A program made the position numbers and the translations under genes. A DNA stretch of 13,678 nucleotides, from the NCBI GenBank assembly GCA_020847115.1, contig JADLCO010000136.1, positions 1 through 13,678 of the forward strand, in the 5' to 3' direction. Under the pieces are notes generated by a model, which was not told where the DNA came from, made no database searches, and worked only from the letters and a program-made list of their open reading frames with translations. The number at the start of each line of letters is the position of its first letter. The first letter of the stretch is position 1. Source of the DNA: Pseudomonadales bacterium (GTDB lineage Bacteria; Pseudomonadota; Gammaproteobacteria; Pseudomonadales; Porticoccaceae). Shown in pieces: positions 2 through 13,678 of the stretch.

Positions 2-271
2 CCCAAGTTCGTCGCCGCGATCGACGCCGGGCGCTGCATCGGCTGTGGCCGCTGTTTCCGCGTCTGCGGGCGCGATGTGCTGCAGATGGTGGGATTGACC
101 GAGGACGGCGAAAAAATTCCGGTGGGCGCGGTCGGCGACGAGGACGACGACGAGGAGTACGAGCGCAAGATCATGACCATCGCCAACCAGATGAACTGCG
201 TCGGCTGCGAGGCCTGCTCCAAGATCTGTCCGAAGAAGTGCTACACCCACACCCCCATGGAGGCACCCTGA
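2..271 (+). CDS. fdxB: nif-specific ferredoxin III, 2x[4Fe-4S] type (5' end outside window)
   Basis: The frame of ORF 77..271 stays open to the window edge (PKFVAAIDAGRCIGCGRCFRVCGRDVLQM...). Two C-x2-C-x2-C-x3-C motifs (CIGCGRCFRVC and CVGCEACSKICP) are separated by an acidic insert (GDEDDDEEYE), the layout of nif ferredoxin III. It lies directly upstream of nifQ. Confidence 0.85.
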   Translation, partial: PKFVAAIDAGRCIGCGRCFRVCGRDVLQMVGLTEDGEKIPVGAVGDEDDDEEYERKIMTIANQMNCVGCEACSKICPKKCYTHTPMEAP

Positions 272-891
272 TGACGGCGGCGCCGGCGCTGCGCAGCGAA
301 GGCACGGGGCTCGCGGGGCGGCTGCTGGCCAGCGCCCGCGATCCCGGACAGCCCGAAATCCTGGCGCTGGCGCACGGCATCGCGCTCACCTGGGGCTGGT
401 CACTGGGGCCGGCGGGCGGGGTGCTGGGGCTCGATCGCGAGGCCAGCCGGGCACTGCTCGCGGCGGTGTTTCCCGCTGCGGGCCCGCTGCTCGACGATTT
501 GCCCGCACCATCCGCAGCGGCAGATAGAGATCGCGCCGACGAATTCGCCGATCTGCTCGGCCTGCTCCTGGCGCATCGGCTGCGCCCCAACCGCGACGGC
601 GAGTGGCTGGCGCGCGCGGTGGCCGCGGGCTGTCTCGGCGACAATCACCTGTGGGAGGACCTGGGCCTGCCGAGCCGGGCGCAGCTGTCCGCCCTGCTCG
701 ATGCCTGGTTTCCGGCGCTGGTCGCGCGCAATGCCTACAACCTGCGCTGGAAGCGGTTTTTCTACCGCCAGCTCTGCGAGGCCACCGAGATCCGCCTGTG
801 CAAGGCGCCGAGCTGTGGCGTGTGCAGCGACTACGCCGCCTGCTTCGGCGGCGTTGCGGCGCCGGCAGCGATCGGGAGCGCCGCGCCATGA
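271..891 (+). CDS. nifQ: NifQ (molybdenum processing for FeMo-cofactor)
   Basis: The C-terminal CKAPSCGVCSDYAAC matches the NifQ Cx4Cx2Cx5C signature, preceded by the conserved LGDNHLWEDLGL...RWKRFFYRQLC block. ATG 271 overlaps the fdxB stop (TGATG). The GTG at 238 in the ORF track would overlap fdxB by 34 nt and is not preferred. Confidence 0.9.
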   Translation: MTAAPALRSEGTGLAGRLLASARDPGQPEILALAHGIALTWGWSLGPAGGVLGLDREASRALLAAVFPAAGPLLDDLPAPSAAADRDRADEFADLLGLLLAHRLRPNRDGEWLARAVAAGCLGDNHLWEDLGLPSRAQLSALLDAWFPALVARNAYNLRWKRFFYRQLCEATEIRLCKAPSCGVCSDYAACFGGVAAPAAIGSAAP

Positions 892-6296: not shown

Positions 6297-6676
6297 ACGA
6301 TACCCTCACCCGTGACATCCGCGTGATTGCCGAGCCGCGCTTCCTGCCCGAGCAATCGGATCCGTCATCCAGCCGGTTCGTGTTTGCCTACCGGATCACC
6401 GTGCGCAACGAGGGCGCGGTCCCGGTGCGGCTGCTGTCGCGGCACTGGGTCATCACCAATGGCGAGGGCGCCGTGGAGGAAGTGCGCGGGCCGGGGGTGG
6501 TGGGTTGCCAGCCAAAGATCGAACCGGGAAGGGAGTTCCAGTACACGAGCGGCTGCCCACTCGACACGCCGATGGGCACCATGCACGGCAGTTTCCAGAT
6601 GGTGACCGCGGCCGGGGAGGCGTTCGATGCCCGCATCGCGCCGTTCCGGCTGGTGGTGCCGAACGTGCTGAATTGA
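6293..6676 (+). CDS. apaG: ApaG (DUF525) protein, 127 aa
   Basis: The typical ApaG sequence is present: FVFAYRITVRNEG...RHWVITNGEG..EEVRGPGVVGCQPKIEPGREFQYTSGCPL.TPMGTMHGSFQM. ATG 6293 lies inside ORF 5612..6676. Confidence 0.9.
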   Translation: MNDTLTRDIRVIAEPRFLPEQSDPSSSRFVFAYRITVRNEGAVPVRLLSRHWVITNGEGAVEEVRGPGVVGCQPKIEPGREFQYTSGCPLDTPMGTMHGSFQMVTAAGEAFDARIAPFRLVVPNVLN

Positions 6677-6742
6677 CCCGGGGCGCGCGGCGGTGGGGGT
6701 CGCGCGATCCGGCGGCACGGTCGCCGCTGCTGTTGAACGGGG

Positions 6743-6982
6743 CTATAGCGGGATGCCGAAATAGTCCTCCTCCGTGCCACCCCAGATCTGATGCAACGCC
6801 AGGGCATCGCGCCATTTCGCGAGCTCTTCCGTCTCCGCCGGGCGGTGGGAAATGGCGCCGCCCGGATTTTTGCCCAGCAAAAACGCCTTGCCGTTGCGAA
6901 TGAAGCGGCCGAGCGCCTTGGCGTCGGTGGGTCGCACCACGCAGCGCGGTGCGCCGTCGACCAGGATGGTGGTTGGCAACAT
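6743..6982 (-). CDS. Hypothetical small protein, 79 aa (last gene of the minus-strand operon)
   Basis: An internal ATG (6982) of ORF 6743..7072 is preceded by GGGGAGA (SD-like). The sequence is MLPTTILVDGAPRCVVRPTD...WGGTEEDYFGIPL. By my hand count 15 of 80 codons end in A/T, clearly more than in neighbouring genes. No family recognised. Confidence 0.55.
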   Translation of the reverse strand: MLPTTILVDGAPRCVVRPTDAKALGRFIRNGKAFLLGKNPGGAISHRPAETEELAKWRDALALHQIWGGTEEDYFGIPL

Positions 6983-7003
6983 GGCCCGATCTCCCCGAGA
7001 GAG

Positions 7004-7028
7004 GCTGAATCTTCCCGTAGCCGAATCT
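7004..7028. repeat. Imperfect direct repeat GCTGAATCT / GCCGAATCT with 16-nt period in the 61-nt spacer
   Basis: Read directly: 7004-7012 gctgaatct and 7020-7028 gccgaatct (8/9 identical), flanked by gagaga...tctct. It lies in the spacer between the Cys-rich gene stop (7044) and the ATG at 6982. Confidence 0.3.
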
Positions 7029-7043
7029 CTGCGCGCTTCGCTT

Positions 7044-7256
7044 TCAGCCCGCCGCCCGCATGGCGTGGGCACCGCACTTGCGGCAGGTGTCGAGCACGTC
7101 GAAGGCCTGCTCGGTGCAAGTGCCCTGGTTCTGCTTGCAGCCGCGCGCGCCGCACTCGCCGCACCGGTACAGGGTGCCGTTGCATTGCTGGCCGGCCTTG
7201 CGCGTGCCGGCGCACAGGGGCTGGTCGGACTTGAGCTGGTCGTAGGCGAGTGCCAT
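7044..7256 (-). CDS. Small cysteine-rich protein, 70 aa, 8 Cys, zinc-ribbon/rubredoxin-like knuckles
   Basis: This is the last 70 codons of ORF 7044..8036, starting MALAYDQLKSDQPLC.... Cys lie at positions 15, 25, 32, 35, 40, 47, 58 and 61, with two CxxCG knuckles (YRCGECG, DTCRKCG). Only 4 of 71 codons end in A/T by hand count, so it is strongly coding. An ACGGAG SD lies inside the end of the upstream gene, with a 5-nt gap to the DUF364 stop. Confidence 0.75.
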   Translation of the reverse strand: MALAYDQLKSDQPLCAGTRKAGQQCNGTLYRCGECGARGCKQNQGTCTEQAFDVLDTCRKCGAHAMRAAG

Positions 7257-7261
7257 GGGGT

Positions 7262-8044
7262 CTACTCCGTGGTGGGGGATGAACGGCCGCCGAGCGGCGC
7301 CAGCGCATAGCCCGCGCCGCCCTCGAACAGCCGCGTGCCGCCGCCCTCGGCGACGGTGCGGCGCAGCTGTTCCGGATCGGTGACCTGCACGCCGGCGAGG
7401 TAATCGATGCCGAACTCGGCGAGCTCCGCCAGCCAGGGCGTGCCGGGGCCCATCAGCACCGTGGTGGCGTTGCGGGCGAGCTCCGCCAGCCGCGGAAAGG
7501 TCTTGTTGGCAAGGCTGCTTGCGGTCAGGAACACCCAGTCGGCTTCGGGCAGCAGGTACTCGCAGGCCGGGTCCGGCAGGTCGCCTGCTCCCGGCTGGCG
7601 CTCCAGTACCACCAGATCCGCGCCGGCGGCCAGTGTCTCGAGGCCCGGGTAGCGGCCGATCACCACCACCCGCCGGCCGCCGAGCAGCGGCAGGAAATGC
7701 GCGAACACGGCGAGGTTGCCGGGCCCCGCGCCGACCAGCGGCCGGGCACGGGCGAGCAGGGGGTTGTCCGGGGTGTTGATCACGGCGTTGACGGCAGCGA
7801 GGCCCAGGCTCGCCGCGTGTGGGTCCCAGTCGCGCAGCCGGGCGGCGAGGTCCGCTAGCGGCTGGCCCACCAGCGTGCCCGGCCAGGGCAGGGTGCGCGG
7901 CGCGGCGGCCGGGGTCATGGCGAGGCCCGTGCCCCGGGGGCTGCGGCACAGCGTCCACACCAGCCCCATCACCACCTCTTCGGCAGGGTCGTCCGCGCCG
8001 GCGACGCGGTCCAGCAGCAGGTCGTAGACGGACCACGGGTTCAT
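7262..8044 (-). CDS. DUF4213/DUF364 protein (Rossmann-like 'putative heavy-metal chelation' family), 260 aa
   Basis: The N-terminal VVMGLVWTLCRSPRGTGLAMT is DUF4213-like. The C-terminal RVVVIGRYPG...LVVLERQP..GDLPDPACEYLLPEADWVFLTASSLANKT...VLMGPGTPW...GIDYLAGVQVTDPE...AEGGGTRLF matches my recollection of the PF04016 pattern. Confidence 0.85.
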   Translation of the reverse strand: MNPWSVYDLLLDRVAGADDPAEEVVMGLVWTLCRSPRGTGLAMTPAAAPRTLPWPGTLVGQPLADLAARLRDWDPHAASLGLAAVNAVINTPDNPLLARARPLVGAGPGNLAVFAHFLPLLGGRRVVVIGRYPGLETLAAGADLVVLERQPGAGDLPDPACEYLLPEADWVFLTASSLANKTFPRLAELARNATTVLMGPGTPWLAELAEFGIDYLAGVQVTDPEQLRRTVAEGGGTRLFEGGAGYALAPLGGRSSPTTE

Positions 8045-8071
8045 CGCGGCAGCGCGGCGCGCGGGCGATGT

Positions 8072-8872
8072 TCAGGCCGCATCGATCGCGCCCCGGTGCA
8101 GTGCCCGGATCACCTCGGCGCCGACCTGGTCATCCGGATCGAGTTCGGCGAGCTTGTCGAGCAGCGTCCGGCTCTGCTCGGGGTCGCCGCGGCGCAGGCG
8201 GATGAAGGCCAGGGCCTTGAGACTGAACAGGTAGAAGCGCGCTGGGCCCGCGGCCGGCGACCAGGGTGCGGCGGCGCGCGACAGCGCCCGCCAGTCCGCC
8301 GCGAACCCGCCCTGAGCCGCGGCCGCCGCCAGACCGTCGCGGGTGGCGGCTTCGGCCTCGGCCAGTCGATTGCGATGGAACAGGAACTTGTAGCGGGCGA
8401 AGTGGACCGCCAAGGCGCCGGGATCGGCGCGCGCCGCCTGCTCCAGGCGGCGTTCGGTGGCTCCCGCGTCGGTGGCCAGGCTCGCGGCCGCCTCGGTCAG
8501 GGCGGCGTCGGTGGCGGCGCGCAGTGCCGCGCCATCTGCCGGGCGTTTGGCCACCGCCGGCAGCGGCGGATGTTCGGTGCCGGGTGATGTCGGGAGCGGG
8601 AAGTGGTTGGCGATGATCGCCGGCAGATCGGCGGGCGTCACGCCGTTGTAGAGCACGCCCTCGGGATAGAGCAGCAGCGCCGGTCCCTGATTGCAGGGGC
8701 TCGGGCAGCCCTTGAATTCCACCGCTACGCTGGGCCACAGCCGGCGCCGGTCGATCTCATCGACGACCGCCTGCAGCAGCGTCAGCGCTGCCGCGTCACC
8801 GCCACTGCCGTGCGCATGCCCCGGCGGGCACTGCTGGGTACACACCAGGATGCGCGACTGGGCGGTGGCCAT
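8072..8872 (-). CDS. Thioredoxin-like [2Fe-2S] ferredoxin domain fused to an Ala-rich helical (TPR-like) C-terminal domain, 266 aa
   Basis: The start ATG 8872 is 5 nt downstream of the fixX stop. The rest of ORF 8072..9199 overlaps fixX and is not coding. The N-terminus is RILVCTQQCPPGH...VEFKGCPSPCNQGPALLLYPEGVLYNGV, with Cys at 11, 15, 56 and 60 (C-x3-C-x40-C-x3-C). This echoes the Cys11/14/24/56/60 layout of the Clostridium pasteurianum thioredoxin-like 2Fe-2S ferredoxin. The C-terminal about 170 aa are helical repeat-like (FYLFSLKALAFIRLRRGDPEQSRTLLDKLAELDPDDQVG). Confidence 0.7.
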   Translation of the reverse strand: MATAQSRILVCTQQCPPGHAHGSGGDAAALTLLQAVVDEIDRRRLWPSVAVEFKGCPSPCNQGPALLLYPEGVLYNGVTPADLPAIIANHFPLPTSPGTEHPPLPAVAKRPADGAALRAATDAALTEAAASLATDAGATERRLEQAARADPGALAVHFARYKFLFHRNRLAEAEAATRDGLAAAAAQGGFAADWRALSRAAAPWSPAAGPARFYLFSLKALAFIRLRRGDPEQSRTLLDKLAELDPDDQVGAEVIRALHRGAIDAA

Positions 8873-8877
8873 GGTGG

Positions 8878-9171
8878 TCAGCCGAACTTGAACAGGATGC
8901 CGAAGCCGCCGCGGGGATATTCCCAGTCGACGTTGCGGAATTCGGTGCAGATCACCCGGCAGGTGCCGCATTCCAGGCAGCCGTCGGTGATCAGCGTCAC
9001 CGCGCCGTTGCCCTCGGCGGTATAGCAGCCGGCGGGGCAACAAGTGGTGCATTGCTGCGCCTGGCATTGGCTGCGGCACACGTCCGGATCCCGGATCTGG
9101 ATGTGCGGCCGGCCGGCATCCACCTTGTAGCGGTTCTGAAACAGTTTTTCTTCGACATTCACGCGCATCAT
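8878..9171 (-). CDS. fixX: FixX ferredoxin-like protein, 97 aa
   Basis: MMRVNVEEKLFQNRYKVDAGRPHI...CPAGCY...GCLECGTCRVIC...WEYPRGGFGILFKFG is the typical FixX sequence. Its start overlaps the fixC stop (ATGA). Confidence 0.93.
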   Translation of the reverse strand: MMRVNVEEKLFQNRYKVDAGRPHIQIRDPDVCRSQCQAQQCTTCCPAGCYTAEGNGAVTLITDGCLECGTCRVICTEFRNVDWEYPRGGFGILFKFG

Positions 9172-10466
9172 TCGAACGCCCTCCACAGGCGGAACGCATC
9201 GCCCATCATGCCCAGCCAGCCGCGCCGCCCGGCGAAGGCGCGGCGCACCTCGCGCTCCTTGCTCTTCTTGTCGACACCGTCGACCTTGACCCACTGGTGT
9301 GCGGCCAGGGTGATCAGCTCGGGATAGAGCGTGAAGAAGTGCGGACTGCGGTGCAGCGCCGCCGGCAGCCGGCGGTATTTCTTCAAATCCTTCATCACGA
9401 AACTGTCGTCCAGCCGCTGCTTGTAGCCGGCCAGGTTGGCGGCGCTGAACGGCTGGCCCGCCGCGTGCAGATCGATGGCGGTCTCGGCGGCCAGTCGGCC
9501 CGAGGTCATGGCCAGGTTGGAGCCCTCGCGGTGCACCGCGTTGACCAGCCCGGCGGAGTCGCCGGCGATCATCCAGCCGTTGCCGTAGAGCTTCGGAATG
9601 GCGTCGTAGCCGCCCTCGGGAATCAGGTGGGCGACGTACTCCTTGACCTCGGCGCCTTCCAGCAGCGGGCGGATCGCCGGGTGTGCCTTCATCTCCTCGA
9701 GCATCACATAGGGCGGGATCTTCTGTGCGGCGAAGTCCGACAGCATGCAGCCGACGCCGATGGTCAGGCTCTCCTTGTTGGTGTAGAGAAAGCCCGTTCC
9801 TATCATGCCCTTGGTGATCTTGCCCACCATCTCGATGGCGACGCCCTCGTCGCCCTTCACGTTGAAGCGCGGCTCGATGATCTCGGGGGCGAGGAACAGG
9901 GTTTCCTTGACCGCGAGCGCCACGTCCTTGGGCTTGAGCTCGGGGTGGAAGCCGGCCTTGCGCGCCAGCGTGGAATTGACGCCGTCGGCCAGGATCACCA
10001 GATCGGCGTAGATGGCGCCACCCTCGCGGTCGGTCAGCACGCCGGCCACGCGGTCGCCGTCGAAGATCAGCTCGCGCACCGTGGTCTCGCAGATCACCAG
10101 GCCGCCGGCGTCCTGCACCTTCTTCGAGAACCACTTGTCGAACTGGGCGCGGACGATGGTGTAGCGGTTGTAGGGCGGGCGGTTGAAGGCTTCGGCGCGG
10201 TAGTTGCCGCCGACGTAGGCTTCGTCGTCGAGCAGCCAGCCGCGCTGTTCAATCAGGTAGCGCTCCAGCGGCGCGTCGTCGCGGAAGTCGGGAATGATGC
10301 GCTCCAGGGCGTCGGCGTAGAGGATCGCGCCCTGGACGTTCTTCGAACCCGGCGTTTCGCCGCGCTCGATCTGCAGCACCGACAGGCCGGCCTTGGCCAG
10401 GGTGTAGGCGGCGGCATTGCCGGCCGGTCCGGCGCCGACCACGATGGTGTCGAATTTCTCGTGCAT
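9168..10466 (-). CDS. fixC: FixC, ETF-quinone oxidoreductase-like flavoprotein, 432 aa
   Basis: An N-terminal FAD-binding motif (DTIVVGAGPAGNAAAYTLAKAGLSVLQIERG), the right length and its position between fixB and fixX. A GGGAGA SD lies upstream. Confidence 0.95.
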   Translation of the reverse strand: MHEKFDTIVVGAGPAGNAAAYTLAKAGLSVLQIERGETPGSKNVQGAILYADALERIIPDFRDDAPLERYLIEQRGWLLDDEAYVGGNYRAEAFNRPPYNRYTIVRAQFDKWFSKKVQDAGGLVICETTVRELIFDGDRVAGVLTDREGGAIYADLVILADGVNSTLARKAGFHPELKPKDVALAVKETLFLAPEIIEPRFNVKGDEGVAIEMVGKITKGMIGTGFLYTNKESLTIGVGCMLSDFAAQKIPPYVMLEEMKAHPAIRPLLEGAEVKEYVAHLIPEGGYDAIPKLYGNGWMIAGDSAGLVNAVHREGSNLAMTSGRLAAETAIDLHAAGQPFSAANLAGYKQRLDDSFVMKDLKKYRRLPAALHRSPHFFTLYPELITLAAHQWVKVDGVDKKSKEREVRRAFAGRRGWLGMMGDAFRLWRAFE

Positions 10467-10479
10467 GGCGTGTCTCCCG

Positions 10480-11568
10480 TCAACCGGCTTTGCGTGCCAC
10501 CGCCAGGTGTTGGCGGAAGGCTTCGGTCAAGGCCGGCAGAACCTGCAGGGCATTGCCCACGATGCCGTAGGTGGCGAAGTCGAAGATGGGCGCGTTGGGG
10601 TCGTTGTTGATGGCGATGATCACGTCGGCGCCCTCCATGCCCACCCGGTGCTGCACCGCGCCGGAGATGCCGGCGGCGATGTAGAGCTTGGGCCGCACCG
10701 TCTTGCCGGACTGGCCCACCTGGCGGTCGAGCTCCACCCAGCCGGCCTGCACCACCGGCCGCGAGGCGCCCACCTCGGCGCCGAGCACCCGCGCCAGATC
10801 CCAGACCAACTGGAAATTCTCGGGGCTTTTCAGGCCGCGGCCGCCGGAGACGATGATGTCGGCAAACGGCAGTTGCGGCCTGTCCTGGCGGTTGTCGGGG
10901 ATGTAGTCCAGCACCTTGGTGACGATGTCGGTTTCGATCAGGTGCAGGGGCTGCTCGATGATCGGCCCGCTGCGGCTCTCGTCGTAGCTGGCCATGGGCA
11001 TCACCCGCGGGCGCACCGTGGCCATCTGCGGCCGGTAGTTCAGGGTGAGGATGGTGCACAGCAGGCTGCCGCCGAAGGTGGGGCGGGAAGCCGCCAGACT
11101 GCGGTTCTCGGGGTCGATATTGAGCTCGGTGCAGTCGGCGGTGAGCCCGGTCTGCAGCGTGGTGGCCACCGAGCCCGCCAGGTCGCGGCCGAGCGTGGTC
11201 GCGCCGAGCAGCAGGATCTCCGGCTGATGGGCGTTGACCAGCTCGGTGAGGCCCTGGGTGAAGGGCTGGTTGCGGTAATCCGCGAGCACCGGGTCCTCCA
11301 TCAGGTAGCAGCGGTCAGCGCCGTAGCGGAAGGCCTCGTGACAGAAGCGCCGCGTGTCCTCGCCCGGCGCCCCCATCACCACCCCGGACAGGGGTACGCC
11401 GAGCTGGTCGGCGAGCTTGCGGCCCTCGCCCATCAGCTCCCAGGACACGCTGTGCGCCTGGCCGCGCTCGTGCTCCACGAACACCCACACGCCCTGATAG
11501 GCGGCGAGTCGCGGATCCAGCTCGACCTTGCGGCCGGCGCGCTTGGCGGGTGCTTTGGCTTCGGTCAT
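10480..11568 (-). CDS. fixB: FixB, electron-transfer flavoprotein alpha subunit, 362 aa
   Basis: The real start is ATG 11568 inside ORF 10480..12249 ([14 protein letters not shown]...), 2 nt after the fixA stop. An ETF-alpha C-terminal FAD domain is present (VSGGRGL...[11 protein letters not shown]...[25 protein letters not shown]). Confidence 0.95.
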
Positions 11569-11570
11569 GG

Positions 11571-12425
11571 TCAGATGCTCCCGGTGGTGCCCGCGGAGAT
11601 GGCGCTCTCCAGGGCGGGGTGTTGCGTGAAGAGTTTGGCGATGAGGGTGACGGCGAGATCCTTGGGCGCGTTGCTCTCGCACTTGATTTGCTCGGCCTTG
11701 CTCGCCTTCGGCTGGGGGGCAAACACCTTGCTGACCACGGTCGGCGAGCCCTTGAGGCCGATCTTGGCGACATCCTCGATGCCGGCCGCGGCCTTGTCCC
11801 ACACCCGCACCGGGTGGCGCGCGGCGCGGAACATGCCGGCCTGGCTCGCAAAGCGCATCTCGTTGGTGCCTTCGAGCATGGTGATCAGACAGGGCAGGCG
11901 CGTCTGCAGCACCTGCACGCCGCCTTCGGCGCGGCGCTGGACGACGATTTCGCGCCGCTCGGTATCGACGCGGTCGACCTGGCTGACGTAGGTGAGCAAC
12001 TGCAGGTCGAGGCGTTTGGCGATGCCGGGGCCGACCTGGGCGGTGTCGCCGTCGATGGTCTGCTTGCCGCAGAACACCAGGTCCACCGCCATGTTGCGGC
12101 CGATCTGGCCGATCGCGCTGGCCAGCGCAAAGCTGGTGGCCAGCGTGTCGGAACCGGCGAAGGCGCGATCGGTGACCAGGATGGCGTCGTCGGCGCCAAA
12201 CGAGATCGCCTTGCGCAGCGCGGCCTCGGCGGGCGGCGGCCCCATGCACAGCACGGTGACCTGGGCGCCGTAGGTGTCCTTGAGGCGCAGCGCTTCTTCC
12301 AGGGCGAACAGATCGTAGGGATTGACCACTGCCGGCACACCCTGGCGCATGATGGTGTTGGTCACCGGATGGACGCGGATCTGCGAACTGTCCGGGACCT
12401 GCTTGATGCAGACGACGATGTGCAT
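11571..12425 (-). CDS. fixA: FixA, electron-transfer flavoprotein beta subunit, 284 aa
   Basis: [50 protein letters not shown] is the classic ETF-beta/FixA N-terminus. A GGAG SD follows directly after the nifW stop. Confidence 0.95.
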
Positions 12426-12437
12426 GTAACTGACTCC

Positions 12438-12767
12438 TCAGTGCCGTTGTGAGGGAAGGCTGGCGCGCAGCCTGTCGAGGCTGACGCGCTGGCCATCGGC
12501 GTCCTGGAACACCTTGAACACCTTTTCCCGGGCCGCGGTGGAATGGACGAAATCCTCGTAGGCGCGGACCAGCAGCGCCTTGCAGGTCTGCCCTTGGTCC
12601 GGTTCATCCAGAGCCTCGAGCTCGGCGCGCGCCAGGTATTGGCTGAAGCGCTTGAGGATGTGCAGGCGGTGCACCTGCACCACCCCCGGCTCGTAGGGAA
12701 TCTGGAAAAACGCCAGGAATTCCTCGGCGGCGGAAAATTCCTGCAGGGTGCGCAGCAGCTCGGTCAT
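12438..12767 (-). CDS. nifW: NifW, nitrogenase-stabilising/protective protein, 109 aa
   Basis: [38 protein letters not shown] is the conserved NifW N-terminal block. The start overlaps the nifV stop (ATGA). Confidence 0.93.
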
Positions 12768-13678
12768 GGCCGTACCTCGGCAGTGCCGGGCGCGGCGGCG
12801 GTGTGGCGCAGTTCAGTGTGGTGCAGTTCGGCGTGGAAGCGGCGCAGCTCCTCGGCTTCCGGCGGACGCTTGGCGAGCTGGGCATGAGTGCGCACCCGCG
12901 CCAGCAGCCGCTCGGCCTGGACCCGGGTCAGGGTGATGCCCAGCTCGCGCTGATAGGCGGCGCGCACGGCGTGTGCGCCGGAGTGCTTGCCGAGCACCAG
13001 GCGATGGCCGCGGCCGACTTCGGCCGGATCGAAGCTCTGGTAGTTCGGCGCGTGCTTGAGCAGGCCGTCGACGTGGATGCCGGATTCGTGGGTGAACACG
13101 CCTTCGCCCACCACGCTCTTGTTGGCCGCCACCGGGCGCCCCGAAGCGGCGGCGACCAGGCGCGACAGGTCGGGCAAGCGGCGGGTATCGACGCCGGTGG
13201 CGATGCCGTGCAGGTGGCGCAGCGCCATCACCACCTCCTCGAGGGGCGCATTGCCGGCGCGCTCGCCCAAGCCGTTGACCGTGGTGTTGACATGGGTTGC
13301 GCCGGCCAGCACCGCCGCCAGTGTGTTCGCCGTGGCGAGGCCGAGATCGTCGTGGGCGTGCATCTCCAGTTCCAGATCGACATGCTGGCGCAGCCGGGCG
13401 ATGGCCGCGCGGGTGGCGAAGGGATCCAGCACCCCGAGCGTGTCGGCGTAGCGCAGGCGCCGCGCGCCGCTGGCCTGGGCCCGCTCGGCGAAGCGCAGCA
13501 GGAAATCGGCGTCGGCGCGCGAGGCATCCTCGGCGCCGACGCTCACCTCGCAGCCGCGGTCGCGCGCCGCGCGCACGTGGCGGTCGATGGCGGCGAGCAC
13601 GAAGGCGCGGTCGCGGCCCAGCTTGCGCGCGATCTGCAGGTCCGAGGCCGGGATCGCCAGGTGCACGCAGGTGGCGCC
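12764..13678 (-). CDS. nifV: NifV homocitrate synthase (N-terminus outside window)
   Basis: The frame remains open to the window edge ([13 protein letters not shown]...), so the GTG 'start' at 13666 in the ORF track is internal. [47 protein letters not shown] and [11 protein letters not shown] are homocitrate/isopropylmalate synthase family motifs. The nif context supports NifV. Confidence 0.92.

Follow-up and report, generated by a model that had tools for sequence, protein, structure and literature searches.

The window analysed in this study is a 13,678-nucleotide stretch of DNA (GenBank contig JADLCO010000136.1) that forms contig C136 of a metagenome-assembled genome (MAG; 2.56 Mb, 261 contigs, 93% complete). 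By sequence comparison the host is Immundisolibacter-like, since the best genome locus, in an Immundisolibacter MAG, shows the same gene order and 83% protein identity. The minus strand of the window carries a gene for a protein with the domains DUF4213 and DUF364. It is almost certain that this gene is intact and expressed-looking, that its two-domain product is the ortholog of NafS of Azotobacter vinelandii within a monophyletic subfamily found, among the genomes sampled, only together with nitrogenase, and that it is the eighth gene of an operon (Table 1). The function is proposed tentatively: the protein is possibly a conditionally required accessory enzyme in the molybdenum branch of iron-molybdenum cofactor (FeMo-co) supply, which would use an adenosyl ligand of the S-adenosylmethionine (SAM) type.

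Both Pfam models of the family matched the 260-aa protein far above their gathering cut-offs, DUF4213 (PF13938) in the N-terminal part (residues 7 to 89; 68.7 bits, E 5.3e-19, cut-off 23.5) and DUF364 (PF04016) in the C-terminal part (residues 114 to 247; 137.6 bits, E 3.1e-40, cut-off 23). The family assignment of an earlier note, which had been made from the letters of the DNA and its open reading frames (ORFs), was thereby borne out. With phmmer, both solved DUF364 structures were retrieved (PDB 3L5O, E 1.7e-35, and 3NPG, E 5e-5). An AlphaFold2 (AF2) model built on 30 orthologs (mean predicted local distance difference test score 91.7, predicted template modelling score 0.91) superposed on 3L5O with a template modelling (TM) score of 0.80 to 0.85 (Foldseek, E 1e-25) and on 3NPG with 0.71 to 0.80, and Foldseek returned no further structure above a TM score of 0.37. 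The enolase-N-like plus Rossmann-like fold expected in the earlier note is thus found in the model. Among the candidates scored from a collection of 5.8 billion proteins, 1,482 relatives were detected at E <= 1e-3, the closest with 87% identity; a library of 1.84 billion representatives yielded 1,347 relatives, 121 of these below E 1e-30. Because of these more than 1,400 homologues, including orthologs at 51 to 87% identity, the frame 7262–8044 is the coding one. A 330-aa shadow ORF (7044–8036) was rejected as a coding frame, as it had no family match, and none of the other ORFs overlapping 7044–8044 had one. Long shadow ORFs are common in the window owing to its G+C content of about 70%. NCBIfam contained no model for the protein, and no fused or longer forms were found among proteins of 456–2000 aa, which is weak evidence.

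In A. vinelandii (locus L081), the genes for FesI (6792–7115), a tetratricopeptide repeat (TPR) protein (7121–7621), a 125-aa ORF (7618–7995), the DUF364 protein (8001–8732) and an ORF of about 147 aa (8738–9181) follow each other and are succeeded on the other strand by an ABC ATPase classified as ModC equivalog (NCBIfam, 367 bits, cut-off 285). Published locus tags are Avin_01520 for fesI (PMC8561814) and Avin_01560 for nafT, the gene of a 15-kDa protein (PMC9968304). A transposon sequencing (Tn-seq) table from 2026 lists, in this order, Avin_01520, 01530, nafQ (01540), nafS (01550), nafT (01560), nafK and nafJ, the last as 'ABC transporter ATP-binding'. Since the gene order in L081 matches that of the Tn-seq table and the published tags, we infer that the A. 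vinelandii DUF364 gene is nafS (Avin_01550), which is annotated only as 'conserved hypothetical protein'; no description of nafS was found in the literature on the naf names. The window protein is 54% identical to A. vinelandii NafS over the full length.

A maximum-likelihood tree was calculated for 139 DUF364 proteins, comprising representatives of 225–345 aa and orthologs of known gene context, with most near-duplicate orthologs left out; a quick search was applied, with support values from the Shimodaira-Hasegawa-like approximate likelihood ratio test (SH-aLRT) only. A clade of 45 rows containing every ortholog of known context was separated from the 94 other DUF364 proteins at an SH-aLRT of 99. 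The window protein grouped with P0020 inside this clade, termed nif-type in the following, which also holds the A. vinelandii copy.

Co-occurrence with nitrogenase genes was counted in even draws rather than complete censuses, namely 400 Gammaproteobacteria plus the window's own genome (401 in total) and 301 Cyanobacteria. With strong orthologs defined in the gammaproteobacterial sample by E <= 1e-79 and nifH scored against its curated cut-off, nifH was detected in all ten ortholog-bearing Gammaproteobacteria (own genome excluded), which represent nine families, compared to 37 of the 401 genomes (9%) overall. A weak gammaproteobacterial match (32% identity) in a genome lacking nifH and nifD turned out to be a different paralogue. 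Among the Cyanobacteria, nifH was found in 18 of 19 ortholog-bearing genomes and nifD (798 bits) in the nineteenth, while nifH was present in 59 of the 301 genomes (20%). Altogether, nitrogenase genes were detected in 29 of 29 sampled ortholog-bearing genomes from two phyla, even where the DUF364 gene is located megabases away from nif; among the genomes sampled, the nif-type clade is found only in nitrogenase-bearing ones. Naive Fisher tests gave p values of 1e-11 (Gammaproteobacteria) and 4e-15 (Cyanobacteria), figures which overstate the case because the genomes are related and not independent. The link to nitrogen fixation is much more general than could be seen for the earlier note, which had suggested phylogenetic profiling. 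About 27 to 31% of the sampled diazotrophs carry the ortholog, and the nif-type DUF364 gene is therefore an accessory rather than a core gene.

In the cyanobacterial genome without a nifH match (G549; none at E 1e-90), nifD matches were distributed in several pieces over about 34 kb (G549:C1:242086-276454), a pattern compatible with an interruption of the nif genes by excision elements.

Scanning 185,579 species genomes resulted in 97 confirmed loci, the best 80 of which were kept for neighbourhood counts; for these, every ORF located up to 7 kb from the gene was included in a clustering, and representatives were scanned for families. About 45 of the best 80 loci are cyanobacterial (Calothrix, Fischerella, Scytonema, Xenococcus, Leptolyngbyaceae and others). 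The proteobacterial hosts are Immundisolibacter-like Gammaproteobacteria, A. vinelandii, A. beijerinckii, Billgrantia, Gynuella, many Methylococcaceae, Zetaproteobacteria and a Magnetovibrionaceae alphaproteobacterium. No strict anaerobe was found among these 80. Orthologs are kept in the genome-reduced N2-fixing endosymbionts of Rhopalodia/Epithemia diatoms (L025, L041, L049, L058). In four genomes of the cyanobacterial sample (G428, G527, G601, G694) the gene is located 8 to 14 kb from nifH, and in Synechocystis LKSZ1 a horizontally transferred nif island contains it.

Several loci connect the gene with molybdenum. On a cyanobacterial MAG contig (L033:1-3315), the DUF364 gene (57% identity) is placed between modA (TIGR01256, 195 bits) and a modB/modC fusion (TIGR02141, 245 bits). 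Genes similar to modA or modC are present within 6 kb in L035, L052, L062, L065, L069, L073, L074 and both Azotobacter loci, and in a gammaproteobacterial genome the ortholog immediately precedes nifQ, with both genes on one strand (G221:C25:2794-4195). For Methanococcus maripaludis, MMP_RS02675, a DUF364 gene in the modABC operon, was described as cofit with nifH under N2 fixation, polar effects not being excluded (bioRxiv 10.1101/2024.03.05.583561), and Miller et al. (2010) reported STRING links of DUF364 to Mo, W and V transport genes.

The alignment of the 30 orthologs contained 39 invariant positions. Among these, G27, W30, G40, N86, G130, P133, E148, D155 and P157 are also retained by the majority of the 94 outgroup proteins, as are E162, N180, K181 and R185 and the nearly invariant T174 and T182, while R50, Y132, W170, GGG234-236, F240 and Y246 constitute the signature of the nif-type clade itself. 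The cleft residues named by Miller et al. (2010) for 3L5O are G37, G39, R42, N83, G129, E148, T174, D180 and T182. Six of these nine are kept in the window protein (G40, N86, G130, E148, T174, T182); G39 is replaced by Ala, R42 by Pro and D180 by Asn, the last being the majority residue across the 139 family members. Glu148 was equated by the same authors with the acidic residue through which adenosyl-binding Rossmann folds bind the hydroxyls of the ribose. By analogy, the interdomain pocket looks like a binding site for an adenosyl compound or SAM. No Cys or His is invariant among the 30 orthologs (C33 is common there, but Val or Ala takes its place in a large part of the wider clade), which makes it unlikely that the window protein chelates metal via thiolates or imidazoles. 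The suggestion of a literal heavy-metal chelator was consequently abandoned: judged from the alignment, the NafS-type protein is not itself a Cys/His-based chelator.

Some variation was observed within the nif-type clade. A sizeable fraction of its proteins, 316–338 aa long (P0038, P0083, P0119, P0121 and many more, for example in Methylocaldum), have an extra conserved, helical-looking C-terminal tail of about 60–70 aa (RDRL..EM..WY....RFP..RLE....LS.LD), which is absent from the window protein. A long-branched subclade (P0148, P0150, P0152, P0268, P0269; SH-aLRT 100) has lost E148, D155 and P157, with Y132 and N180 changed as well, and may represent a non-catalytic or re-purposed derivative.

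A different use of the pocket would be that of a non-catalytic carrier, which holds molybdate, another oxyanion or a metal via Arg, Lys, Asn and Thr and shuttles it from the transporter to NifQ/NifEN; this would correspond to the 'chelation' named in the Pfam label. The polar pocket residues T31, R50, N86, N180, K181, T182 and R185 are of the oxyanion-binding kind, and the adjacency of orthologs to mod operons and nifQ, the Pfam description and the genome-context argument of Miller et al. (2010) point in the same direction. The same residues occur, however, in DUF364 proteins at large, including a proven lyase of a SAM derivative, and the Rossmann-like domain retains the adenosyl-ribose residue Glu148. 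Together with the lack of conserved Cys or His and with the finding that the cleft of 3L5O held only chloride and imidazole in the crystals (Miller et al. 2010), this renders a carrier distinctly unlikely.

The lyase is Orf5, a DUF364 protein of the Streptomyces bonnevillamide cluster, which converts (4''R)-4''-methyl-SAM to cis-4-methylazetidine-carboxylate and methylthioadenosine (MTA) with a Km of 24 µM, Tyr61 (cation-pi) and Glu204 being important for activity (PMC12930334). The authors of that study, of January 2026, call it the first functional characterisation of the DUF364 family (PMC12930334), and the statement of the earlier note that the biochemical function of the family is unknown is outdated. 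Given the activity of Orf5, the family can bind ligands of the SAM type and catalyse displacement at the gamma-carbon.

The tentatively preferred role as an accessory enzyme of molybdenum supply combines these lines. A NafS-type protein would act in the cytoplasm between uptake by ModABC and NifQ/NifEN. An adenosyl ligand, most probably SAM or a compound resembling it, would be accommodated in its interdomain pocket, with the ribose-binding Glu148 at the end of Rossmann strand 2 and with Asp155 and Glu162 as well as Lys181 and Arg185 placed so that they might hold an oxyanion or an amino-acid moiety. In analogy to Orf5, a gamma-carbon displacement of SAM or a related small-molecule step would make or process a ligand or carrier of molybdate. 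Gamma-carbon displacement of SAM is the reaction class by which nicotianamine-type metal ligands are built. The need for the protein would be conditional, arising at low Mo or under oxygen stress, which would explain why it is dispensable in Mo-replete laboratory culture. NifQ is likewise dispensable under such conditions. A more specific version, in which aminocarboxypropyl transfer or an azetidine/nicotianamine-like cyclisation, as a new type of SAM-dependent reaction, yields a product that binds or processes molybdate toward NifQ/NifEN in oxygen-exposed diazotrophs, is speculative and considered improbable.

A number of observations weigh against the role in molybdenum supply. Transposon mutants of nafS had fitness values of 1.00 to 1.16 on N2 (with glycerol, acetate, succinate or sucrose) and on urea in the 2026 Tn-seq study, whereas nifH, nifD, nifE and nifV mutants in the same table fell to 0.15–0.5 on N2; nafS is thus dispensable under standard conditions. 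The proposed use of SAM by nif-type DUF364 proteins is an analogy with a distant relative, Orf5. About 65 of the 80 loci have the ortholog in a position not next to mod genes, and in most cyanobacteria the neighbours are unrelated (AbrB, photolyase, methyltransferase and two-component proteins). The window gene itself adjoins no mod genes; modABC of the MAG is encoded on contig C250, where no DUF364 gene is present. NifQ was found in 34 of the 37 nifH-positive Gammaproteobacteria irrespective of the presence of DUF364, and as a discriminating co-occurrence partner it was therefore uninformative. Furthermore, searches of the window's MAG (261 contigs, 93% complete) retrieved neither nifH nor nifD, probably because of an assembly or binning gap: other nif genes are present, namely nifV, nifW and nifQ in the window, nifENX and DUF269 on C184 and the 3' end of nifB on C87. 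The supply of metal to nitrogenase, as suggested in the earlier note, fits the nif-restricted clade and several mod and nifQ links, while the unaltered fitness of nafS mutants in standard diazotrophy does not support it.

The absence of a diazotrophy phenotype in A. vinelandii would also be in line with a SAM lyase or cyclase of secondary metabolism, which hitch-hikes in nif regions without any role in nitrogen fixation, and lyase/cyclase activity is what the sole characterised family member has. Neither a B12-radical SAM C-methyltransferase nor a nonribosomal peptide synthetase (NRPS) was found among the scanned window ORFs, however, and the presence of nitrogenase genes in 29 of 29 ortholog-bearing genomes, even at megabase distance from nif, the retention of the gene in genome-reduced N2-fixing endosymbionts and the separation of the clade from other DUF364 proteins make such a hitch-hiker highly improbable.

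In approximately 20 of the 35 non-cyanobacterial loci, the ortholog is part of a fixed gene string, nifE-nifN-nifX-DUF269-Rop-like (DUF683)-4Fe4S ferredoxin-FesI-TPR-orf125-DUF364, followed by an ORF of about 150 aa in the position of NafT and often by a CCG/Fer4 protein or iscA-nifUSV genes. This arrangement favours a factor for maturation, protection or repair of the MoFe protein in oxygen-exposed diazotrophs that is not Mo-specific. Its partners would be the ferredoxin of the FesI type, the TPR protein and, in genomes that have them, NafQ and NafT, and it would make or remove a small molecule required while the cofactor site stands open or has been damaged, for example upon loss of homocitrate. 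NafT is a binding partner of homocitrate-deficient MoFe protein (PMC9968304). Directly upstream of the window gene lies the FesI and TPR fusion, and the operon opens with nifV and nifW. All of the best 80 loci belong to lineages with an aerobic or microaerobic way of life (Azotobacter, methanotrophs, Zetaproteobacteria, cyanobacteria, Immundisolibacter). On the other hand, no homologue of NafT or of orf125/NafQ was detected with tblastn in the window or its MAG, nor were these found in most cyanobacterial loci; among diazotrophs, the TPR family has a far wider distribution than DUF364; the embedding in the mod operon of L033 is left unexplained; and nafS is without phenotype in A. vinelandii grown in air. 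A role in MoFe protein maturation is hence regarded as fairly unlikely. The probability remaining beyond the molybdenum-supply enzyme and the three alternatives belongs to something else.

The ferredoxin and TPR genes precede the DUF364 ortholog in 25 of the 80 loci. In the window they form a single gene, whose 266-aa product consists of a thioredoxin-like [2Fe-2S] ferredoxin of the FesI (Shethna protein I) type (N-terminal, about 95 aa) and a TPR-like helical C-terminal part. NCBIfam models for 2Fe-2S ferredoxins matched with E 1.4e-15 and 6.3e-13, both below cut-off, along with TPR matches, and in tblastn the two halves were 34% and 46% identical to FesI and the TPR protein of A. vinelandii, respectively. 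The fusion occurs in the window and its close relatives, while the genes are separate and adjacent in A. vinelandii (fesI, Avin_01530) and in methanotrophs. As a Rosetta-stone fusion, it argues that FesI and the TPR protein work together, and the fused protein is likely to be a redox or scaffolding partner of the DUF364 protein in Proteobacteria. The TPR family was present in 28 of 37 nifH-positive Gammaproteobacteria and 38 of 60 such Cyanobacteria; because many of these lack DUF364, the TPR protein was ruled out as an obligate or specific partner. Besides the fusion, the same MAG contains an unfused FesI-like gene (C184:5495-5758) and, on C87, another TPR paralogue.

The window operon comprises ten genes arranged head to tail on the minus strand (nifV-nifW-fixA-fixB-fixC-fixX-FesI::TPR-DUF364-cys70-orf79; Table 1) with intergenic distances from -4 (a 4-bp overlap) to 61 bp, and it converges on a string of plus-strand genes which extends from nifQ to apaG (end at 6676). 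The fix/nif operon setting stated in the earlier note is therefore confirmed; the gene immediately upstream of DUF364 is the ferredoxin::TPR fusion, the stop codon of which lies 27 bp before the DUF364 start, and not fixX. A scan of the minus strand from 6300 to 9300 predicted neither sigma-70-like promoters nor intrinsic terminators. The sigma-54 promoter pattern matched six times (6.4 expected), in no case upstream of the DUF364 gene, and an Rfam search gave no match. The single terminator-like hairpin of the region is located on the plus strand (6838–6875; 10-bp stem with nine G-C pairs, followed by a T-run), antisense within orf79. It probably ends the converging apaG operon, in which case the two convergent transcripts would overlap.

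Table 1. Genes of the window discussed in the text, with the evidence for each assignment.
Gene or product	Position	Strand	Evidence and remarks
nifV (homocitrate synthase)	12764..13678	minus	Pfam HMGL-like, HCS_D2; 5' end runs off the window
nifW	12438..12767	minus	NCBIfam NifW, 119.6 bits (above cut-off 117)
fixA (electron transfer flavoprotein (ETF) beta)	11571..12425	minus	Pfam ETF, E 1.7e-44
fixB (ETF alpha)	10480..11568	minus	Pfam ETF, ETF_alpha; ATG at 11568, 2 bp past fixA stop
fixC (ETF-quinone oxidoreductase-like flavoprotein)	9168..10466	minus	Pfam DAO, FAD_binding_3, ETFQO_UQ-bd
fixX (ferredoxin-like)	8878..9171	minus	NCBIfam FixX, E 8.6e-21; ATGA overlap with fixC stop
FesI-like [2Fe-2S] ferredoxin::TPR-like fusion, 266 aa	8072..8872	minus	NCBIfam, TPR matches, tblastn
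NafS-type DUF4213+DUF364 protein, 260 aa	7262..8044	minus	ATG to TAG; Pfam, AF2, orthologs
cys70, 70 aa, 8 Cys	7044..7256	minus	Conserved in related loci; no family
orf79, conserved hypothetical, 79 aa	6743..6982	minus	Last operon gene; conserved in related loci; no family
nifQ (Mo donor for FeMo-co)	238..891	plus	Pfam NifQ, E 1.1e-49; 6.4 kb from DUF364

Downstream of the DUF364 gene, the Cys-rich peptide predicted in the earlier note is encoded by cys70, which starts 5 bp past the DUF364 stop and has a GGAG motif 9 nt upstream, inside the 3' end of the DUF364 gene; from this arrangement cys70 is predicted to be translationally coupled to it. The cysteines are spaced C-x9-C-x6-C-x2-C-x4-C-x6-C-x10-C-x2-C, and all eight as well as the reading frame are kept in four related loci at 77 to 81% identity. 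Homologues form seven clusters in the 5.8-billion-protein collection, all with at least 69% identity and including Immundisolibacter cernigliae. No Pfam or NCBIfam family matched, in the ESM Atlas unnamed clusters only were found, and no lead to a structure was obtained. The last gene, orf79, has a GGGGAG motif upstream of its ATG, occurs, at 71 to 78% identity, only in the same four loci and had no Pfam or NCBIfam match either. A Rieske-like ORF is encoded between both genes in L002 and L003 and is missing in the window. Genes for fixC and fixX were found upstream of the ortholog in five of the 80 loci only (L002-L006, closely related), to which the fixABCX linkage is confined; cys70 and orf79 are located downstream in four of these and were not found in L004. 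Both genes are additions of the Immundisolibacter lineage. Because of this restriction, cys70 was rejected as a general partner of DUF364. The combination of Cys-rich peptide and fixABCX seen in the earlier note is present here and does not extend to DUF364 in general.

Compared to the literature searched, the identity of nafS as a DUF364 gene, the restriction of the clade to nitrogenase-bearing genomes and the recurrent links to mod genes and nifQ seem to be new. The DUF364 family and the gene name nafS were known before, and the window gene is an ordinary member of the nif-type clade. The unstudied nafS gene of Azotobacter is thus connected with an enzyme-like DUF364 protein, whose clade is nitrogenase-restricted in two phyla even if unlinked to nif. 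The intracellular processing of molybdate before NifQ/NifEN is an open point in nitrogenase biogenesis; a SAM-derived molybdate ligand, if it exists, would provide the link, so far undefined, that leads from molybdate uptake to the Mo-Fe-S species incorporated into FeMo-co. This is of relevance for the transfer of nitrogen fixation into crops, for which the minimal set of accessory genes is debated. As gamma-carbon displacement of SAM can be assayed directly, a domain of unknown function is turned into a concrete and cheaply testable hypothesis.

Four known systems can be compared with the window gene. Dhaf4260 of Desulfitobacterium hafniense (3L5O) shares the two-domain fold, with 33% identity in the structural alignment, and falls outside the nif-type clade. 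Orf5 belongs to the same Pfam family and was demonstrated to bind a SAM derivative and to displace MTA from it in an intramolecular reaction. It is encoded in an NRPS cluster with a B12-radical SAM C-methyltransferase (BnvC-like), whereas no such match was obtained among the scanned window ORFs. MMP_RS02675 of M. maripaludis is tied to molybdate uptake, and its layout, modA-DUF364-modBC, is shared by the cyanobacterial locus L033; it is archaeal and located inside a mod operon, in contrast to the window gene, which lies outside any mod operon. The fourth system is NafS. The nafS gene follows nifENX and has NafQ, NafT and the ModC-type NafJ as neighbours, whereas the window gene follows fixABCX; the synteny FesI-TPR-NafQ-NafS-NafT is changed in the window, which has a single fused gene for FesI and TPR, lacks NafQ and NafT and carries the lineage-specific cys70 and orf79 downstream. 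Both proteins belong to the same clade and have the same invariant residues, and in both loci the FesI and TPR genes precede the DUF364 gene.

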